A stretch of 64,000 nucleotides of DNA, from contig OY764159.1 of assembly GCA_963668175.1 (NCBI GenBank), forward strand, positions 32,001 to 96,000, in the 5' to 3' direction. Below are positions 31,072 to 40,991 of the stretch, one piece after another; the first letter of the stretch is position 1; the number at the start of each line of letters is the position of its first letter. This DNA is from Syntrophales bacterium (lineage in GTDB: Bacteria; Desulfobacterota; Syntrophia; Syntrophales; PHBD01). The notes under the pieces were generated by a model. That model did no database searches. It was not told where the DNA came from and worked only from the letters and a program-made list of their open reading frames with translations. A program made the translations under genes and the position numbers.

Positions 31072-31854
31072 TCACGGGATATGCTGCCGGATGGTCGAGG
31101 CGTCGACGATCCGCTGATTAAGCCCGGCCGAATCTTCAGCGGCAATCATTCGTTCGATTTCGGCGACAACCTGCTTATAGGCTTCGACGATACGGTATTT
31201 GTTCGGATTTCTCATGATCATGTCCACGTAGAGGCCGTGATGGTCGCTGAATATCTTTTCCATGAACTTCTTCTTGGCCCTGAAAACGGGTGTGGAAAAA
31301 GAATCCTGGGTTTCGCGGTCGATATTCAACTCCTTCAGGGCCAGACCGAAGGCGATGGTGTTGATATGCGTCAATCCCTGCACCACGGCCATCATGTCGT
31401 CGTGTACGCGGGGCGTGGTCACAACGACCCGGGCTTTCCGTGTTTCCAGGAGGTCCTTTAAACAGTTGAACCAGCGCTCCCCTCTGCCGGGGCAGAGGAC
31501 GATATTCTCTCCGGCCAGGGAGATCACGTCTGGACCGAAAAGCGGATGACAGCCGACGACCTCCGCAACGGATAGCCCAAGCATGGCCGCCATAGGCTCT
31601 TCCTTCAGCGACGTAAAATCCATCAACAATTGTTCCCGTTTCAATTGCGGCCCGATCTCACAGATGACATCGACTGTAACGTCTATGGGTACGGAAACAA
31701 CGACAACCTGGCACTGGGCTGCAATCCCGGAGGGCGTCACTTCCGTATGTCTTCCCGCCACCGAAACGGTGAAGCCCTCTTTGCGGAAGAAATCGGCGAA
31801 CCAGCGGCCGATACCTCCCGTACCGCCGATAATCCCGATATGAATATCTTTCAT
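31072..31854 (-). CDS. tyrA: Prephenate/arogenate dehydrogenase
   Basis: [34 protein letters not shown]; start at MKDIH overlaps the aroC stop. Confidence 0.9.
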
Positions 31855-32906
31855 GGGTTCAAGGTCCTCTGTCTTAAGAGATGGTCGGCAAGGACGATGC
31901 TGACCATCGCCTCGCAAACGGGAATAATGCGGGGAATCACCGATACGTCGTGCCTTCCCTTCACGGACAGCGTCACGGCGTTCCCGCTGATATCGATCGT
32001 GTCCTGCGGCCTCGCTATCGAAGGAATCGGCTTGCACGCCGCACGGATAACGATATCGGCGCCTGTCGTGATGCCGGCAAGGCTTCCCCCGGCATGGTTC
32101 GAAGCGAATCCGCCGGGTGTGATGGGATCGTTACACTCCGAGCCCGTCATGCGTGCCGCCTCCAACCCGGCGCCGATTTCGACGGCCTTGACCGTTCCAA
32201 TGCTCATCAGGGCCTTGGCGAGATCGGCGTCGATTTTGTCGAATACGGGATCTCCCAATCCGGGAGGACAGCCCTGAACGACGATTTCCACGATACCGCC
32301 CAGGGTGTCGCCTTCCTGCCTGGCCTGACGGAGCTTTTCTTCCATCCTTTCAGCCGCAGCCGAGTCGGGGCAGCACAAGGCATTGCGTCCGGCATCGGCA
32401 AGGGAATCGATGCGGCAAACGATACCGCCCAGTTCTCTCGTATAGGCTACGACTCGGATTCCAGCGCCCGCTATGACCTTGCGCGCTACGGCACCGGCGG
32501 CGACGCGCGATGCCGTCTCCCGTCCCGACGCCCGGCCTCCGCCGCGATGGTCGCGGATGCCGTATTTCCTCAAGTAGGTTACATCGCCGTGGCCGGGCCG
32601 AAGGATCGTCCTCAATGTTTCGTAATCGCCGCTGCGGGCATCGCTATTCCTTATCAAGAGCGAAATCGCCGTCCCCGTCGTCTTACCCTCGAATGTCCCC
32701 GACAGTATTTCGACACGGTCCGCTTCCTTGCGGGGTGTCGCCGAATCAAGCCGTCCCGGCCGGCGCCGGTCGAGATCAACCTGTATATCCTCCTCGGTTA
32801 ACGCCAGGTTCGGCGGACATCCGTCGATAATCGCTCCAATCGCGGGACCGTGGGATTCCCCCCATGTCGTAACCCTGAAAATCTCTCCTATGGAATTACC
32901 CGCCAT
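31851..32906 (-). CDS. aroC: Chorismate synthase
   Basis: [28 protein letters not shown]. Confidence 0.97.
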
Positions 32907-33447
32907 ATCGGCCTCCCGTAATCGCCGCCCGTCGCTTTACCGCCAGGAGGCATACTTCTTCGGCAATCTCTTGTATCAGCCGCTCGTCCGTATCGATGCG
33001 GATATCGGCCGCCGACTCGTATCGAGGCCGGCGCTCTGCAAGCACAGCATTTACTTCGTCATATAAGCCCGCCTCGGAAAGGGCAGGCCGTTGCGACTCA
33101 CTCCTTGTATCGTCCTTCATCCTTCGAACGATAGCGGTTGTCCCGGCCGTCAGCCATACGAAAAAGCCATCCGCTTTGAGACACTGGACGTTGGCTTCGT
33201 CGAGAACCGCTCCGCCGCCAAGGGCAATGACACAGCCGTTTTCAGCCGACAGTTTCCGGACAACGGCGCTTTCTTCCTTCCGGAACGACTCCCATCCTTC
33301 TTCGGCAACGATTTCCCGGATCGTCCTTCCCGATTGTTCCTCTATTAGCGCATCGGTGTCGTAAAAGGGAAGCCCCATATCGGCGGCCACCTGTTTTCCG
33401 ATCGTTGTCTTGCCCGTGCACCGGTATCCTATGAAGACGATATTCAT
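32896..33447 (-). CDS. aroK: Shikimate kinase
   Basis: [22 protein letters not shown]. Confidence 0.93.
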
Positions 33448-33450
33448 GGC

Positions 33451-34710
33451 TCAATACCACCTGTCCAGGATATCCCAAAATCCGGGAAAGGATTTCCCGA
33501 CGCAGTCCGGATTGGAGATGGTGATGTCGGGAACGGCCAATCCCAGGACGGCAAAGCTCATGGCGATGCGGTGGTCGTTATAAGTCTCGATCGCGGCACC
33601 GTGCGGTTTACCGCCGACGATGACCATGCCGTCTTCGATCTCTTCCGCATGGGTGCCGACGCGGCGAAGTTCGTTGACCAGGGCTTCCAGGCGGTTGCTC
33701 TCCTTCATGCGCAGGTGCGAGACATTACGGATGACCGTTCTTCCCGGCCGCAACGCTGCAAGAACTGCAACCGTAGGAACGACGTCGGGCATGGGTCCGA
33801 AATCGAACTCGTAATCGCCCCGCTGAAGGGGACCGCCGGTTACTTCGATCATGTTGTCCTTCCTGGCAACCTGCACGCCGAGGCGTTCCAGGACGGACAA
33901 AAATCCAATGTCGCCCTGGAGAGTTCCGGGATTGATATTATGGATACTCACCTTCCCCCGGCACACGGCCGCTGCGAGGCAGAAGTAAGAGGCCGAGGAA
34001 ACGTCGCCCTCGACGGTATACGACCTCGCCTGGTAATGCTGTTTTCCCCTGACACGGAAACGTCCCGGAGAAACCTCTTCTACATCCACACCGAAACAAT
34101 GCATGGCCTCGACCGTCATGTCCACATAGGGACGCGACGGGACGGGGCCCACGACATCTATTTTGCTGTCGGCGCCGGCCAATGGACAGCTGATCAGCAG
34201 GGAAGAGACGAACTGGCTGCTCGCGATATCGGTGAGCACGGCACGGCCGCCCTGTAAACCCTCCGTTCGGATTACAACGGGCGGACAGCCCCGACCATTT
34301 TCCGAAGCGGCATGGACCCCCAGGGAGGAAAGGGCGTCGAGCAGCGACCCGACGGGCCTTTCGCAGAGCCTCTCGTCCCCCGTGAGGCGGAATTCCCCTT
34401 TTCCCAGGGCTGCGACCCCCATCAGAAGCCTGATGGCCGTACCGTTGTTGCCCAGATAGATATCCGTTTGCGGCGCGGCGATTCTCCCGGCCGTTCCTTC
34501 GACGGTCAGGGTCTCCGGCTCGATCTCAATGACCGCCCCCATCAGACGCAGGGCCTTAATCAGGTATTCCGTATCCTTTGAAATCAGGGCATGGTGCAGG
34601 ACCGACTTCCCCTCGGCCAGGGCCGCAATAACCAAGGCCCGTTGCGTATAACTTTTGGAGCCCGGCAGTGTGACGGCGGCATTTAAATTCGGCAACGGTT
34701 TGATTTCCAT
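33451..34710 (-). CDS. aroA: 3-phosphoshikimate 1-carboxyvinyltransferase (EPSP synthase)
   Basis: PGSKSYTQR, GNNGT, SSQFVS, KESNR, DHRIAM, KSFP; start placed at MEIKP. Confidence 0.97.
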   Translation of the reverse strand: MEIKPLPNLNAAVTLPGSKSYTQRALVIAALAEGKSVLHHALISKDTEYLIKALRLMGAVIEIEPETLTVEGTAGRIAAPQTDIYLGNNGTAIRLLMGVAALGKGEFRLTGDERLCERPVGSLLDALSSLGVHAASENGRGCPPVVIRTEGLQGGRAVLTDIASSQFVSSLLISCPLAGADSKIDVVGPVPSRPYVDMTVEAMHCFGVDVEEVSPGRFRVRGKQHYQARSYTVEGDVSSASYFCLAAAVCRGKVSIHNINPGTLQGDIGFLSVLERLGVQVARKDNMIEVTGGPLQRGDYEFDFGPMPDVVPTVAVLAALRPGRTVIRNVSHLRMKESNRLEALVNELRRVGTHAEEIEDGMVIVGGKPHGAAIETYNDHRIAMSFAVLGLAVPDITISNPDCVGKSFPGFWDILDRWY

Positions 34711-35525
34711 TATAATCTCCCGAGCCTCTCCGTCACAGCACACTTCATAACATCGAGAGGCGGCTCCATGCCCGTCCACAGCCGGATCTGTTCGGCACCC
34801 TGGCCGACAAACATGCCGAGACCTGTATGCGTTACACATCCGGCAGCCTCGGCCTCCTGAAGCAACTTGGTCCTGATCGGATTGTACACGATATCGACCG
34901 CGTGTCGGAACCGCGGCAGGATTTCCTTCGGTACCGGCGAGGCTTCCATATTCGGAAACATGCCGACCGGCGTCGTATTGACCAGACAATCCCCAAGGAC
35001 TGCACCAATCTCTTCAAAAGGCAGCCAGGAACAGCCGAATTCCGCTGCCAGCCCGGCGGCCTTCTCCGCCGTCTTGTTCACGACGACCGGCAAACCCTTT
35101 TCCCGAAGAAGGCCGTAAACGACGGCCCGGGCCGCCCCCCCGGCACCGACCACCACAAACCTCTTCCCTCCAATATCCATGCGCGCCTTTAAATCGGCGA
35201 CGAAGCCCTGCCAATCGGTGTTATGGCCCGTAAATCGCCCATCGCGGCGGCAAACCGTGTTGACGGCCCCGATTTGCCTGGCCCCTTCGTCGATATGATC
35301 CAGATATTCCATCATGGAGACTTTAAAGGGGATGGTCACGCTTGCCCCGGCGATATCTCCCCCGCGCAGCAGCCGGACGGCCTCCCCGATGTCGTTGGGG
35401 CAAAGGGCCACGTAACGGGCGCCGATGCCCATCCTGGTATAAGCCGCGTTATGCATAAGCGGCGAGAGGCTGTGCGCTACGGGGTTCCCCAGGAGCGCGT
35501 AGGTCTTAGCGGTCTTCATCGTCAC
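34710..35525 (-). CDS. aroE: Shikimate dehydrogenase
   Basis: GNPVAHSLSP, VTIPFK, GAVNT, NTDWQG, GAGGAA. Confidence 0.96.
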   Translation of the reverse strand: MTMKTAKTYALLGNPVAHSLSPLMHNAAYTRMGIGARYVALCPNDIGEAVRLLRGGDIAGASVTIPFKVSMMEYLDHIDEGARQIGAVNTVCRRDGRFTGHNTDWQGFVADLKARMDIGGKRFVVVGAGGAARAVVYGLLREKGLPVVVNKTAEKAAGLAAEFGCSWLPFEEIGAVLGDCLVNTTPVGMFPNMEASPVPKEILPRFRHAVDIVYNPIRTKLLQEAEAAGCVTHTGLGMFVGQGAEQIRLWTGMEPPLDVMKCAVTERLGRL

Positions 35526-36201
35526 CTGCCAGAATTCTGTGAAGCTGCCGCATCTCCTCCGCCGTCAACTGGCCGGGAGCGGTCCTTTCCTCAGGCGACA
35601 AGGCCGCGTAGCTGATACGCGATCCCCAGAAAGGCGCCATGGCCCTGCTCAAGCGGCCCCTGGGCCCCATGCAGAAAGCGATGATGTCCCGGCCCCTTTT
35701 TTGTGAATGGACAAGCAGATTCAAGATCTTGAAATTGTCCGCATCCGTCCTGGCATAAGGAACGACCTTCACGATATCGGCGCCTTCGCCACAGCCCCGA
35801 TCCACCTTGTTTCTCAATGCACGCTCGGAAGGTGTTCCCGACATATCGTGCCATGAGAGAATCAAGTGCGTTTTCCGCTTACAATGGGCAATGGCTGCAG
35901 CGATATTTTTCCTCAAGTCCGGAGACGTCTGCAGTTCCACGTCGATAAAATCCGCCCCCAGTTCGACCGCCTGCGTCAGCAGTGCGATTCGCTCGCCTTC
36001 GCTTCCGGAAAACAATCCTCCCTCTTCCCGGCAGCGGTTAGTGACGATGACCTTCTTTCTTTTCCCGGCAAGGAGCCGTTTCAGGTCGACATCCCTGATC
36101 CCGTCGATCCGCAGTTCTACAACATCTGCCAACGTGAAGGCATTCTTCATTTTGACCAGGGCGTCTTCGTTCGACTCGGGACTAACCGATATGCACATCA
36201 T
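35506..36201 (-). CDS. aroD: Type I 3-dehydroquinate dehydratase
   Basis: VELRID, TNRCREEGG, DVEL, SWHD, TAPGQ; start at MMCIS overlaps the pheA stop. Confidence 0.93.
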   Translation of the reverse strand: MMCISVSPESNEDALVKMKNAFTLADVVELRIDGIRDVDLKRLLAGKRKKVIVTNRCREEGGLFSGSEGERIALLTQAVELGADFIDVELQTSPDLRKNIAAAIAHCKRKTHLILSWHDMSGTPSERALRNKVDRGCGEGADIVKVVPYARTDADNFKILNLLVHSQKRGRDIIAFCMGPRGRLSRAMAPFWGSRISYAALSPEERTAPGQLTAEEMRQLHRILAGDDEDR

Positions 36202-37280
36202 GGCCGGTCCTGCCCCTGGGGATAAGATCCGAGAATTTTGACGAACGCCGCCTGGGTTTTCAGCTCCTGCAGGCATTTCCCGACCTCTTTGTCTTCCGCA
36301 TGCCCCAAAAAATCGGTAAAGAAGAGGTACTCCCATGCCCGGTCCTTGACAGGGTAGGACTCTATCCTCGTCAGATTGACACCGCGCTCCGCAAATGCCG
36401 ACAGGGCCTTATAAAGCGATCCCGGGGCATGGGCCGTCCCGAAAAGGATCGATGTTTTGTCCGCTCCCGTGGGCCTTACATCCCCGCGACCTATCACGAA
36501 GAAGCGGGTTGTGTTGCCCGGATGGTCTTCGATCCCTTCCGCCATGACATTGAGATGATAAGTCGATGCCGCGGCCTGGCTCCCGATCGCGGCTGCTACC
36601 GGGTCCTCGCCGACCCGCCGGGCTGCCCCGGCCGTGCTTTCGACCTCTAAAACGGTCGCCGCGGGCAGATTGGTCCTCAACCAGCCCCGGCACTGGGCAA
36701 TGGCCTGGGGGTGGGAGTAAACCCTGCGCACCGCTTCCAGATCGCGACCAGCCGAAAGCAGGCAATGCCTGATTCTCAAAAAGACTTCCGCCTTTATGCG
36801 AAGCGGCGTGGCGATGAGCCTGTCCAGGGTCAGCTTTACGGAGCCTTCAATGGAATTTTCAATCGGGACGATGCCCAGCTGAACCGCCCCCCTTTCCACC
36901 TCTTCAAAAACACCGGCTATGGACGAAACGGGACGCAGGCCGGCTTGTCTGCCGAATTGCGAAAGGGCCGCCATATGGGAGAAGGATGCTTCGGGTCCCA
37001 GGTAAGCGACGGACAGCTCGACCTGAAGCGCCCGGCAGGCGGAAACGATTTCCCTGAAAATATCGCCCAGGGCCGCATCGGTCAGGGGACCTTCGTTCAC
37101 GCCCGTCACGGATCTGAAAACGTGGCTTTCCTGGGAAGCATCGTATACGCTTCTTCCCTGGGCGTTCTTTTCCTCGCCGATCTCGACGGCCAGGGCAGCT
37201 CGCTCATTGAGCAATTTGACCATATCGCCGTCGGTCTTTCTGATCCTCCGCCTGAGGCGTTCCAGTTTGTTCTCAGCCAT
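36198..37280 (-). CDS. pheA: Bifunctional chorismate mutase/prephenate dehydratase (P-protein)
   Basis: N-terminal CM domain, YLGPEASFS, PIENS, SHPQA, NTTRF, ACT domain NLTRIES. Confidence 0.95.
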   Translation of the reverse strand: MAENKLERLRRRIRKTDGDMVKLLNERAALAVEIGEEKNAQGRSVYDASQESHVFRSVTGVNEGPLTDAALGDIFREIVSACRALQVELSVAYLGPEASFSHMAALSQFGRQAGLRPVSSIAGVFEEVERGAVQLGIVPIENSIEGSVKLTLDRLIATPLRIKAEVFLRIRHCLLSAGRDLEAVRRVYSHPQAIAQCRGWLRTNLPAATVLEVESTAGAARRVGEDPVAAAIGSQAAASTYHLNVMAEGIEDHPGNTTRFFVIGRGDVRPTGADKTSILFGTAHAPGSLYKALSAFAERGVNLTRIESYPVKDRAWEYLFFTDFLGHAEDKEVGKCLQELKTQAAFVKILGSYPQGQDRP

Positions 37281-38373
37281 GCTTCAGTCCCTCGATCGTT
37301 TCCCTTACGACAGGTTCCGGAACTCCACCATTGACAAAGGGCATGCCCATTTTCTTGAGGAGAACAAAATGTATATTCTCTCCCTGTTTCTTTTTGTCCA
37401 TCTTCAGCCGCGCCAAAATAGCGTCGGTTTTCACACCCGGATCTATTCGTTCGACGAGACCCATGTTCCGGATGAAAGAGGTAATTCTATCGGCATCTTC
37501 ATTGCTCAGATAGTTGAGGCGTTGCGATATTCTCGTGGCGGCCGCCATGCCCACGGAAACGGCGTCGCCGTGCGGAATCGCATAATCCGATTCCGCTTCG
37601 AGCGCATGGCCGACGGTGTGTCCGAAGTTGAGGATTCGCCGCAGTCCGGTCTCTTTTTCATCGATCTCCACGATGTTTTTCTTGATCCGGCAGCACGACG
37701 CAATGAGTCCTTCCAAAAAGGATAAATCCCTGTTTCTCAGCTTCTCCACGTTAGCTTCCATCAGGGTGGCGAGTTCCGGCGATTCGATGAGGGCGTACTT
37801 CACCATCTCCGCCAAGCCGTTCCGGAATTCCCGATCCGGCAATGTCCTGAGAAAGGCCGTATCGATGAAGACCGCCTTGGGTTGATGGAACGTGCCGATC
37901 AGGTTCTTCCCGGCGGCCGTGTCGACGCCGGTCTTGCCGCCGATGCAACTGTCTATCTGGGCAAGCAGGGTCGTGGGAAAGTGGATGCACGGTATGCCGC
38001 GCATATACAGGGATGCCATGAGTCCTGCGATATCCCCCGTAACGCCGCCGCCCAGAGCGACGAGCGCCGATGTCCTGTCGGCGCCGAGCGCCGCCAGTTT
38101 TTCGGCGATCTCCAGGCAGGTGGAAAATGATTTGGACTTCTCGCCGGCGGGAAAGTCGATCGTGTCAACCTTCAAATCCGATCTCTTCATCGTCTCACAG
38201 AGAAGGCCGCCGTGAAGGGCTGCCACATTTTCGTCGGCGATGACAAAATAGCGCTTGGCCCAGTTATTCTTGGCCATGATCAGCACCGAACGGTCCAAAA
38301 TATCCTCGCCGATATGGATATCGTACGAATTGATCTGCTTCCGGTCGAGATTGACTTTGAGTTTGTTCATCAT
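37273..38373 (-). CDS. aroB: 3-dehydroquinate synthase
   Basis: [31 protein letters not shown]. Confidence 0.96.
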
Positions 38374-39395
38374 TGCACCCTGATTTCCCTTTTCATAACC
38401 CCCTCTATGATCCTGACCTCGTCCATCATCTGGTAGAACTGTTCCGGCCGCAACGACTGAGGACCGTCGGACATGGCCTTTTCCGGCTCCGGATGGACTT
38501 CGACGATGATTCCATCGGCACCGACGGCGACGGCGGCTCTCGTTAAAGGAAGAACATACTTGGAATAGCCGGCGGCATGAGACGGATCGACGATGACCGG
38601 CAGATGGGTCAGTTCCTTCAGAACGGGAACCGCACTGATGTCGAGGGTGTTGCGCGTTGCCGTCTCGAATGTCCGGATTCCCCGTTCGCAGAGAATCACC
38701 TGCTCGTTGCCGGACGACAGGATATACTCGGCCGACATGAGAAGTTCCTCGATCGTTGTCATCAGTCCTCTTTTCAGGAGCACCGGCTTCTTGGCCTGCC
38801 CGACCTTCTTCAGCAGGGCGAAGTTCTGCACGTTCCGGGCGCCGATCTGGAGGATGTCCGCATAGGCTTCAACGAGGTCCACATCCGTCGTATTCATAAC
38901 CTCGGTGACGACAGGCATGCCCGTCGTCTCCCGGACTTTCTGCAGCAGTTTCAATCCGTCTTCGGCCATTCCCTGAAAACTGTAGGGAGACGTCCTCGGC
39001 TTGAAGGCACCGCCGCGAAGAACGTGGGCGCCCGCCTTCCGCGCGATGTAGGCGCATTCCATGAGCTGCTCGTCGCTCTCGATGGAGCAGGGACCGGCCA
39101 TGACGATGAAGTCCGGGCCGCCGATCTTCAGATCACCCACCTCAATGACGGTATTGCCCTCCTTGACCTCGCGGCTGGCAAGTTTATAGGGCTTGAGAAT
39201 CGGCATAACCTTCTCCACCCCTTCCAGGAATTCCGCCGCCTTCAGATGGGCCTTGCCTCGGTCGTCGCCGACGGCGCCGATGATGGTCCGCTCCACTCCC
39301 CTGGACATGTGGGGATTGTATCCGACCGACTCGATCCACCTTACAACGTTATCTATCTGGCCCTCCGTTGCATTTTTTTTCATTAAAACGATCAT
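38370..39395 (-). CDS. aroF: DAHP synthase, class I-beta, with N-terminal regulatory domain
   Basis: [35 protein letters not shown]; start placed at MIVLMK after a GGAG RBS. Confidence 0.95.
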
Positions 39396-39414
39396 GCTCC
39401 TGACCTCCCCAAAT

Positions 39415-39448
39415 AAAAAGGCCGTGACGTTTTCTGCCGCCACGGCCT
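39415..39448 (-). terminator. aro leader terminator 2
   Basis: AGGCCGUGGCG-GCAGAAAA-CGUCACGGCCU (11 bp) followed by UUUUAUUU. Confidence 0.8.
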
Positions 39449-39454
39449 CAAAAT

Positions 39455-39496
39455 AAAAAAGCCGCGGGCAGTATCACTTTCGATCCACCCGCGGCC
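39455..39496 (-). terminator. aro leader terminator 1
   Basis: GGCCGCGGGUGG ... CUGCCCGCGGCU (12 bp) followed by UUUUUAUUUU. Confidence 0.82.
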
Positions 39497-39517
39497 TATG
39501 TTCTTATGTTATCCTTT

Positions 39518-39622
39518 TCAGATCCTCCTGAACGCCGGGCAGACCGATGCGAAGCTATAATAATAGCTAAACCAGTAGCTAAAGTTAAAGCTTGTTAAAT
39601 CGATCTTTGCGTCCTGCGTCAT
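39518..39622 (-). CDS. aro operon leader peptide MTQDAKIDLTSFNFSYWFSYYYSFASVCPAFRRI
   Basis: 34-aa ORF with 9 aromatic codons (4F, 4Y, 1W) in a 13-codon window, directly upstream of two terminators and aroF. Confidence 0.85.
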   Translation of the reverse strand: MTQDAKIDLTSFNFSYWFSYYYSFASVCPAFRRI

Positions 39623-39842
39623 ACCATCGGCCTTCGTTAAAATTTTGTTAATGAGATCATAAGGCGGACAAATATGTCAAGGAAAAATTTTTCCGGCACA
39701 TGTCACCCGCGTTTTCTTTCATCTTTAACTATCCGTATTTTTAAGGAATTTATTTATTCAAATTTTCTAAGTCTACCCTCTTCAGCAATTAAAAGAAAAG
39801 TGCTTCTCTTTGCTCACGCTAATGTCGATCAGGCAAGGACCA

Positions 39843-40991
39843 TCACGCGGAGGGATAATGATTCCGGTCCTTGAGGACCAGGCCGAGGTATCGTTTATAA
39901 TCTGCGGTACCGGACATCAGGTCCAGGTAATATTTACAGTATTTGGCATTCGCTTTCATCTTGCGCATGGCAAAGAGCGACATCCTGCGGTGATAAAAGG
40001 CTTTTCTCAACCAGAAGGCCTGCCGGAAAAGGGGATAAATCCTGCTGCGGAGGGCCGTATGATAGGCTGAAAGCACATCCTTTTTCGAGAGTATGGCTTC
40101 CGCCGCCAATTTCCCGCTCAGCATGGCAAAATACATCCCTTCGCCGGTGATAGGCTCTACCAGACCCGCAGCATCTCCGGCAAGCAACACCTTTCCTTTT
40201 CCCGGTTGTTTCATAAAATTGTGGAACGGTATCGGGTAGCCGCTCACGCGCTCCGGCATATTGGCCTCGTTTTTCAGAAGACGACGAAGAAAGACTTGAA
40301 AGTGGTCTTTCATGTTTTTGCCGTTGGATCTCGTCAAACCGCCGAGGCCGACCGTCGCGAAAGCAGGCTTGGGAAATACCCATCCATAACCGGCGTTGAT
40401 GAAACCGAAATGGATTTGCGGATAGACACCGTCATGGTCAAAACATGTCAGATGCTCATAGGGAATGTCCGCTTCGATGCCGACGGCAAATTCAGCCCTC
40501 CTGACGCGGGGGGAAACGGCCCTGCGGACAACGCTGTAAGGGCCGTCCGCGCCGACTATGAAGTCCGCGGCCAATACATCTCCATTGTCCAGGACGACAC
40601 GATCCTGCGCGACCGCCTTGACTGCATGCCCGCATAAGATCGTACATCCGGAAGCCCGGGCTTTGTTGAGGAAATAGTGATCGAAGCTCGTCCTGTCGAC
40701 GGCGAAAAACCGTTCGGTCGGACCGGACCATTTGCATATCTTTCCCAGGTCTGCATGATAAATGCCGAAGGCGGAGGACTCCATGAGCACAAAGTCCTGC
40801 CGTGCGACGTCCCCGTATATTTCCTTTATCAGGGGTATCGCTTTTTCGGTCAGGAGCCCGCCGCACAATTTCTTGCGGGGGAAGATGGCTTTATCGACGA
40901 CCAGGACCTTCCGGCCGTTCGCCGCCAGGGTATGTGCCGCGGCGGCGCCGGCGCAGCTTCCGCCCACGATGACCACGTCATGCTTTTCCAT
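39843..40991 (-). CDS. Geranylgeranyl reductase family FAD-dependent oxidoreductase
   Basis: VVIVGGSCAG, FPRKKLCGG, GADG, GYGWVFPK, GDAAGLVEPITGEG; start placed at MEKHD. Confidence 0.88.
   Translation of the reverse strand: MEKHDVVIVGGSCAGAAAAHTLAANGRKVLVVDKAIFPRKKLCGGLLTEKAIPLIKEIYGDVARQDFVLMESSAFGIYHADLGKICKWSGPTERFFAVDRTSFDHYFLNKARASGCTILCGHAVKAVAQDRVVLDNGDVLAADFIVGADGPYSVVRRAVSPRVRRAEFAVGIEADIPYEHLTCFDHDGVYPQIHFGFINAGYGWVFPKPAFATVGLGGLTRSNGKNMKDHFQVFLRRLLKNEANMPERVSGYPIPFHNFMKQPGKGKVLLAGDAAGLVEPITGEGMYFAMLSGKLAAEAILSKKDVLSAYHTALRSRIYPLFRQAFWLRKAFYHRRMSLFAMRKMKANAKYCKYYLDLMSGTADYKRYLGLVLKDRNHYPSA

Follow-up and report, generated by a model that had tools for sequence, protein, structure and literature searches.

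A short open reading frame (ORF) rich in codons for Phe, Tyr, and Trp precedes the operon for the whole aromatic amino acid pathway in the window (the 64,000-nt stretch of Syntrophales DNA that we analyzed), together with an antiterminator strand and two terminators. This conserved arrangement very likely constitutes a ribosome-mediated attenuator that would open the entire operon when charged tRNA for Phe, Tyr, or Trp runs low. We infer the ribosome mechanism from the leader ORF, the RNA helices, their conservation and covariation, and a correlation between control codons and gene content, all of which we observed.

RESULTS

A leader ORF with Phe, Tyr, and Trp codons precedes a nine-gene aro operon

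The minus strand of the window contains a 34-codon leader ORF at 39518..39622, and its translation matches the peptide of the original prediction, as does the count of 4 Phe, 4 Tyr, and 1 Trp codons within 13 codons. These codons make up a control-codon block spanning codons 12 to 24 (39551..39589, minus strand), in which W17 lies at 39574-39572, while F24 is probably located too near the modeled antiterminator to count as a control codon. Among the 73,219 small ORFs (8-90 aa) on both strands of the whole genome, this leader alone has 9 aromatic residues in 13, and six further small ORFs have 8. In the upstream scan of the same genome, at least 6 aromatic codons in 10 were found for 18 of 4,011 long ORFs and at least 7 for 2, i.e., the aro leader and one Phe leader. 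At 55 aligned loci, Phe, Tyr, and Trp account for 389 of the 550 codons in the 10-codon window before the antiterminator core when read in the leader frame, which was chosen by its aromatic content, versus 16% in the other frames. Aromatic codons are used in both synonymous forms, and non-aromatic UNN codons are rare (0 TTA/TTG and 9 TGY in 550 codons; Ser is mostly AGC). Because aromatic codons are far more abundant in frame than in the other frames, these data support that the leader is under selection at the codon level. The leader peptide had no match among NCBIfam or Pfam families.

Upstream of the leader, we identified a predicted sigma70-type promoter (39651..39680, minus strand) that consists of TTGACA at 39680-39675, an 18-nt spacer, and a TG-extended weak −10 element at 39659-39651, with transcription predicted to start at ~39645. 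The element TTGAC[A/T] is present upstream of the leader in 52 of the 55 aligned loci; a consensus scan of the window missed both this proposed promoter and terminator 1. A weak SD-like GAAGG (39635-39631, within the feature at 39624..39636, minus strand) overlaps an upstream protector segment (39633-39624) that is not conserved. A possible competitor for initiation is an out-of-frame ATG-GTA-TGA mini-frame at 39627-39619 (minus strand), which overlaps the start codon of the leader.

The operon downstream was identified using NCBIfam and Pfam. It begins with aroF (38370..39395, minus strand), which encodes a type I-beta DAHP synthase with an N-terminal ferredoxin-like domain, and continues at 31072..38373 on the same strand with aroB, pheA (CM/PDT), aroD, aroE, aroA, aroK, aroC, and tyrA (prephenate dehydrogenase). 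Neighboring genes in the order aroF-aroB-pheA-aroD-aroE-aroA-aroK-aroC-tyrA overlap or are 3 nt apart. AroK and TyrA scored under the NCBIfam cutoffs, and TyrA passes those of Pfam PDH_N and PDH_C. The gene order is identical at five related loci (L076-L080), and the closest named AroF records, from Syntrophales, Syntrophus, and Thermodesulfobacteriota, have 73-76% identity.

The leader overlaps a predicted antiterminator strand and is followed by two predicted terminators

The antiterminator strand (segment 2) is located within the leader ORF at 39532..39549 (minus strand), and 17 nt separate the end of its core from the stop codon, both in the target genome and in 35 of the 55 loci. As originally predicted, 39547-39536 is complementary over 12 bp, including G-U pairs, to 39491-39480 in the 5' arm of terminator 1. 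In 12 of the 55 loci, the core is read in a different frame; because this frame varies while the RNA motif stays, we conclude that the constraint acts on the RNA. On the same grounds, we rejected the candidate explanation that the conserved tail (VCP motif) acts as a peptide.

Terminator 1 (39450..39497, minus strand) is composed of a 5' arm at 39497-39480 (segment 3), a 3' arm at 39474-39461 (segment 4), and a U tract to 39450. Terminator 2 and its U tract (39411..39449, minus strand) end just before the aroF SD and about 16 nt before the aroF start. Thus, the terminators and aroF follow the leader as anticipated, in the form of two U-tract hairpins and the whole-pathway operon. The predicted hairpin energies are −26.7 kcal/mol (z −5.7) and −23.5 kcal/mol (z −5.7), respectively. 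We ruled out sequestration of the aroF SD in the target genome, where the SD is located outside terminator 2. Seven other loci (L016, L030, L032, L040, L050, L051, and L053) have a single terminator or a second hairpin that lacks a U tract.

For comparative analyses, we built an alignment (A1) of 55 rows comprising 36 of 41 order-level leaders (five near-duplicates were omitted), 17 phylum-level leaders, and 2 named ones. Helix 2:3 has 13 pairs, is 84% paired in A1, and has double changes at 8 of the 13 pairs; its pairing or covariation score was reached by 0 of 500 shuffles, and slid controls were 30-41% paired. The target genome itself has G-C at a position of this helix where the commonest pair is A-U. 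The terminators are 90.5% paired and have double changes at 17 of 23 pairs. The covariation controls overstate these results somewhat, since the structures were taken from the sequence of the target genome and the A1 relatives are kin. In one analysis of the antiterminator, the automatic choice took the second hairpin as the terminator for L066, L072, and L074, and these three rows are uninformative. The covarying stems for which the original prediction proposed a search in relatives are present in both helix 2:3 and the terminators.

Judged from sequence and modeled folds, the locus has the structural features of a classical leader-peptide attenuator wherever these could be evaluated, a conserved protector excepted. 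The short upstream ORF is enriched in codons for the end products of the operon; a predicted intrinsic terminator (GC hairpin and U tract) lies between the leader and the first gene; and the control codons are directly followed by a predicted antiterminator that takes up the 5' arm of terminator 1, so that the two structures exclude each other. More than one amino acid is represented among the codons within the stalling window: Phe and Tyr codons are present in 41 of 41 leaders and all three kinds in 33 of 41.

A relay helix can link the two terminators

Pairing is possible between the 3' arm of terminator 1 and the 5' arm of terminator 2 (39434..39471, minus strand; −21.6 kcal/mol, z −4.4). 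This relay helix (4:5) is compatible with the 2:3 antiterminator, and the two are present together in the lowest-energy fold of the nascent RNA. At 48 of 55 loci, the arm 4:5 duplex was better than shuffles; for the duplex of the target genome itself, p is 0.07. The relay helix is 84% paired with 22 doubly changed cells (reached by 0 of 500 shuffles), part of this pairing being built in because the arms are near-palindromic. Doubly changed pairs number only 5 of 11, a value reached by 102 of 500 shuffles, and covariation is therefore weaker than that of the other helices. The original prediction gave no account of how terminator 2 is bypassed. In the folding models, the relay helix can supply one, so that a single decision would disable both terminators. 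A linked double terminator suggests a way to reduce leak without a second sensing step.

Masking models are consistent with stalling in the control block

In a masking model, the antiterminator forms with a probability, P, of ~1 as long as the ribosome has not moved past codon Y22. At F24 the value is marginal, and over codons 27-34 it is 0; in 51 of the 55 loci, a ribosome three codons short of the stop codon gives a P of 0.00. The folding results depend on the assumed ribosome footprint: with the ribosome at the stop codon, P is 0.99 if 15 nt are covered upstream and 0.00 if 18 nt are covered. If RNA 5' of the ribosome is allowed to pair across it, P declines, to about 0.6 for a ribosome at W17 and 0.3 for one at F18. 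The complete RNA folds at equilibrium into the terminator, and both terminators dominate; because of this, the switch would have to be kinetic, i.e., co-transcriptional.

We propose that when amino acids are plentiful, the ribosome would reach segment 2 and cover it through the last 10 codons. With segment 2 covered, terminator 1 (3:4) would form, with terminator 2 (5:6) as a backup. A ribosome stalled in the control block (about codons 12-22) would instead allow the emerging segment 3 to pair with segment 2; the freed segment 4 would then pair with segment 5, and RNA polymerase would pass both terminators into aroF.

The original prediction also included a helix upstream of the leader start that would mask the antiterminator. 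The 8-bp pairing of 39632-39625 with 39549-39542 exists in the sequence and is part of the fold modeled for 39640-39535, which, however, is not better than shuffles (z −0.88). No conserved helix was found among the relatives, and we therefore discarded an upstream protector as a family feature, while the pairing is possible in the target genome. When naked RNA is folded from the predicted start site onward, the antiterminator is the dominant structure in 38 of 52 leaders; its competitors are pairing upstream of the start codon in 12 loci and within the ORF in 20. For the target genome, the naked P is 0.24, with the in-ORF segment 39605-39597 as the main competitor. We identified no RNA polymerase pause hairpin.

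The leader is conserved across the order and beyond

The original prediction had singled out absence of the ORF from orthologous loci as evidence against it. On the contrary, we found an aromatic leader in 118 of the 119 order-level genomes examined, the order being likely Syntrophales. In the first set, a family-and-order sample, it was present at 41 of 41 best aroF loci. The further set comprised 80 regions from 78 new genomes, out of 160 order-level genomes with aroF, and the leader was present in 77 of these 78; the single miss has only 329 nt upstream before the contig end. Outside the order, 20 of the 25 best-scoring phylum loci, which are top matches and not a random draw, have the leader and five do not. 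The leader was not seen at 4 of 7 aroF paralogues (L045-L048) and was not detected at three aroF-pheA loci (L109, L115, and L117).

A covariance model built from A1 matched 96 of 151 phylum genomes, a number that is not a count of aromatic leaders because the model also catches leaders for other amino acids. Among its strong matches are aromatic leaders ahead of genes for ADH synthase (four proteins, all above the NCBIfam cutoff), and at five more leader loci the downstream protein resembles ADH synthase as judged from its start only. Aromatic leaders also precede genes for type I-alpha DAHP synthase (L193) and for I-beta enzymes. Related leaders hence precede genes predicted to encode three entry enzymes: DAHP synthases I-beta and I-alpha and the unrelated ADH synthase.

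T-boxes are the usual means of control in Clostridia and other Bacillota. We observed leaders rich in Phe and Tyr codons, some also in Trp codons, together with putative terminators before aroF in these lineages and in one Verrucomicrobiota record (L120, L121, L124, L132, L140, L144-L149, L151, and L155).

Control codons track downstream gene content

Phe-only blocks lie ahead of aroF-pheA at six loci (L042, L043, L131, L133, L135, and L137), Trp-rich blocks ahead of aroF-trpEGDCF at two (L119 and L136), a Phe-plus-Tyr block ahead of aroF-pheA-tyrA at L110, and a Trp-rich leader ahead of a lone aroF at L044.

Within the order, the Trp codon is missing from 8 of the 41 leaders of the first set. 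It is absent in six of the seven genomes without trpC versus 2 of the 34 others; 10 of the 41 genomes were searched directly for trpC, and six of the seven genomes that lack it also had no trpE and trpA matches. In the held-out set, the Trp codon is absent in three of nine genomes without trpC and trpE matches versus 1 of 68 others (Fisher p 0.004, a value that overstates the association since kin are not independent). This set excluded one leaderless genome and two degenerate paralogues of G321, and G316, which has trpE and no trpC match, was scored as trp-positive. Pooled, the Trp codon is absent in 9 of the 16 genomes in which trp genes were not detected, some of which may reflect assembly gaps because most genomes are fragmented, versus 3 of 102 others. 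The exceptions are the seven genomes of these 16 that keep the Trp codon and the three that have trp genes and no Trp codon. Leaders L016 and L030 lack it in the presence of trp genes. Trp-less leaders occupy five places on the aroF tree of the first set, four of them with missing trp genes. An independent-pairs test on the aroF tree gave two pairs in the same direction and none in the opposite (p 0.5), which are too few pairs to reach significance. As read from the sequences, the control codons track the gene content downstream. Together with the presence of the leader in relatives and the covariation of the antiterminator, this relationship between Trp codon and trp genes supports the interpretation as an attenuator.

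Other amino acid leaders are present in the same genome

The window contains a trpL-type leader of 23 codons with three tandem Trp codons (27361-27290, minus strand) ahead of trpE-G-D-C-F-B-A. Its terminators are located at 27265-27180, and it shares the antiterminator, the pair of terminators, and the relay fold with the aro leader. Leaders with three tandem Trp codons are present ahead of trpE in 27 of 30 loci of relatives, and the remaining three are cut by contig ends. Neither a T-box nor TRAP nor TrpR was found in the genome. An Rfam search of the window gave nothing at the gathering score (the best match, SorY, was hairpin-driven and had 21 bits versus a cutoff of 111), and 20 leader loci had no Rfam match at the gathering score.

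Elsewhere in the genome, a Phe-only leader of 29 codons (L157, G000:C1:3385065-3384976, minus strand), with an antiterminator and terminators closely similar to those of the aro leader, precedes a gene for a periplasmic binding protein (PF13458), which likely belongs to a Phe-regulated transporter. A run of Ala codons (L159, G000:C1:1960653-1960567, minus strand) lies ahead of an aminotransferase gene (best match alanine transaminase, below the cutoff), and Ala-rich leaders are present at three of three orthologous loci. Three tandem Trp codons and one terminator (L164, G000:C1:438277-438363, plus strand) precede an indolepyruvate ferredoxin oxidoreductase alpha-like gene, suggesting that this enzyme may feed Trp synthesis. 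Terminator arms of the same style are associated with a Val-rich leader ahead of ilvB (L160, G000:C1:491412-491507, plus strand) and an Ile/Leu-rich leader ahead of leuA (L163, G000:C1:1715292-1715164, minus strand).

DISCUSSION

Alternative explanations

The alternative that deserves most attention is that the attenuator in practice senses only Tyr and/or Phe, with the lone Trp codon having little or no effect. One Trp codon stands against eight Phe/Tyr codons, a fifth of the leaders in the first set (8 of 41) do without it, and a separate trpL attenuator would already control trpE. Moreover, C. glutamicum aroR is reported to respond to Phe, while Tyr availability has no effect despite the Tyr codon in the leader (Neshat et al. 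2014, as summarized in PMC11802643). We nevertheless regard this explanation as unlikely, because 99 of the 102 genomes with trp genes retain the Trp codon, which is frequently missing in genomes without them and sits 15-33 nt (mode 27 nt) before the antiterminator core.

That Phe, Tyr, and Trp codons all begin with U raises the question of whether the leader responds not to charging but to how the tRNAs for UNN codons are modified (MiaA pathway), or to a general slowing of translation. An effect of miaA on pheA is mentioned in PMC3082878, whose authors saw no derepression in a test of their own. The avoidance of non-aromatic UNN codons and the dependence of codon identity on the downstream genes make this explanation very improbable. 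Still harder to sustain is the idea that the hairpins serve the upstream gene as constitutive terminators, or that the peptide is a functional product, and that the pairing of segment 2 is incidental. A geranylgeranyl-reductase-family gene does lie upstream on the same strand and ends at 39843, and, as noted, the terminators win at equilibrium. But the leader has a TTGACA element of its own ahead of it in nearly all aligned loci, the short distance from terminator 2 to aroF leaves no room for a promoter, the upstream ORF varies among relatives, the frame of the peptide tail changes while the RNA motif stays, and helix 2:3 covaries.

We therefore retain ribosome-mediated attenuation in response to charged Phe-, Tyr-, and Trp-tRNA as the preferred explanation. 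A broader proposition, which on balance we slightly favor, is that the leader is a portable, phylum-wide, and truly trivalent attenuator in which one decision is relayed through two terminators, and which acts on three entry enzymes with its codons retuned to the outputs of the pathway. If this is true, then the leader sequence would report which aromatic amino acids an uncultured syntroph makes. The attenuator would also point to a way in which syntrophic and sulfate-reducing bacteria that have neither TrpR nor TRAP nor T-boxes could regulate their costliest amino acid pathway. The correlation between Trp codon and trp genes allows the function of control codons to be tested by comparison, which is rarely possible, and independently hints at Trp auxotrophy among assembled genomes.

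Comparison with known systems

The basic mechanism is textbook, and what appears to be novel is the F/Y/W variant of classical ribosome-mediated attenuation. A survey by Lopatovskaya, Seliverstov, and Lyubetsky from 2010 reportedly covered delta-proteobacteria and could contain a prediction of this kind. In the literature searched, including PMC4833913 (text and supplements, genome lists only), PMC2965389 and PMC11109978 (main texts), and PMC3082878, no F/Y/W leader is described for this lineage.

Multivalent attenuators such as thrL and ilvL have control codons, a 2:3 antiterminator, and a 3:4 intrinsic terminator. The same architecture is described for trpL, pheL, and hisL of E. coli in the relevant portions of PMC1183508 (trp and his) and PMC11802643 (pheL), and the present leader resembles these. 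Unlike them, it combines three amino acids in one block, has no conserved 1:2 protector, has its stop codon 10-11 codons past the block, and is followed by a second terminator linked by a relay helix. A leader stop codon far downstream is one possible design for low basal read-through in the account given in PMC1183508, and the position of the stop codon in the present leader fits this low-leak design.

Leaders upstream of aroF have been proposed in other lineages. The uORFC-13-1 motif of Acholeplasma (24 representatives, as presented in PMC8632094) is similar in having a predicted upstream ORF and a terminator before aroF, but it has a U run that codes for at least one Phe and belongs to a different lineage, while the leaders described here match no Rfam family. 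The aroF motif of Shewanella is listed as a possible Tyr-tRNA attenuator in PMC2659441.

By analogy, the closest known system appears to be aroR of C. glutamicum, a Phe-Tyr-Phe leader ahead of aroF according to the section of PMC4046766 that concerns it. In both cases, a leader peptide with aromatic codons precedes a DAHP synthase operon and ribosome stalling causes attenuation, which is predicted for the leader described here; the resemblance is functional only. Unlike aroR, which has no Trp codon, the present leader has nine aromatic codons of all three kinds, two terminators, and a nine-gene operon downstream, and it would represent a naturally occurring sensor with three inputs for the common aromatic pathway, which goes beyond the Phe-responsive aroR.
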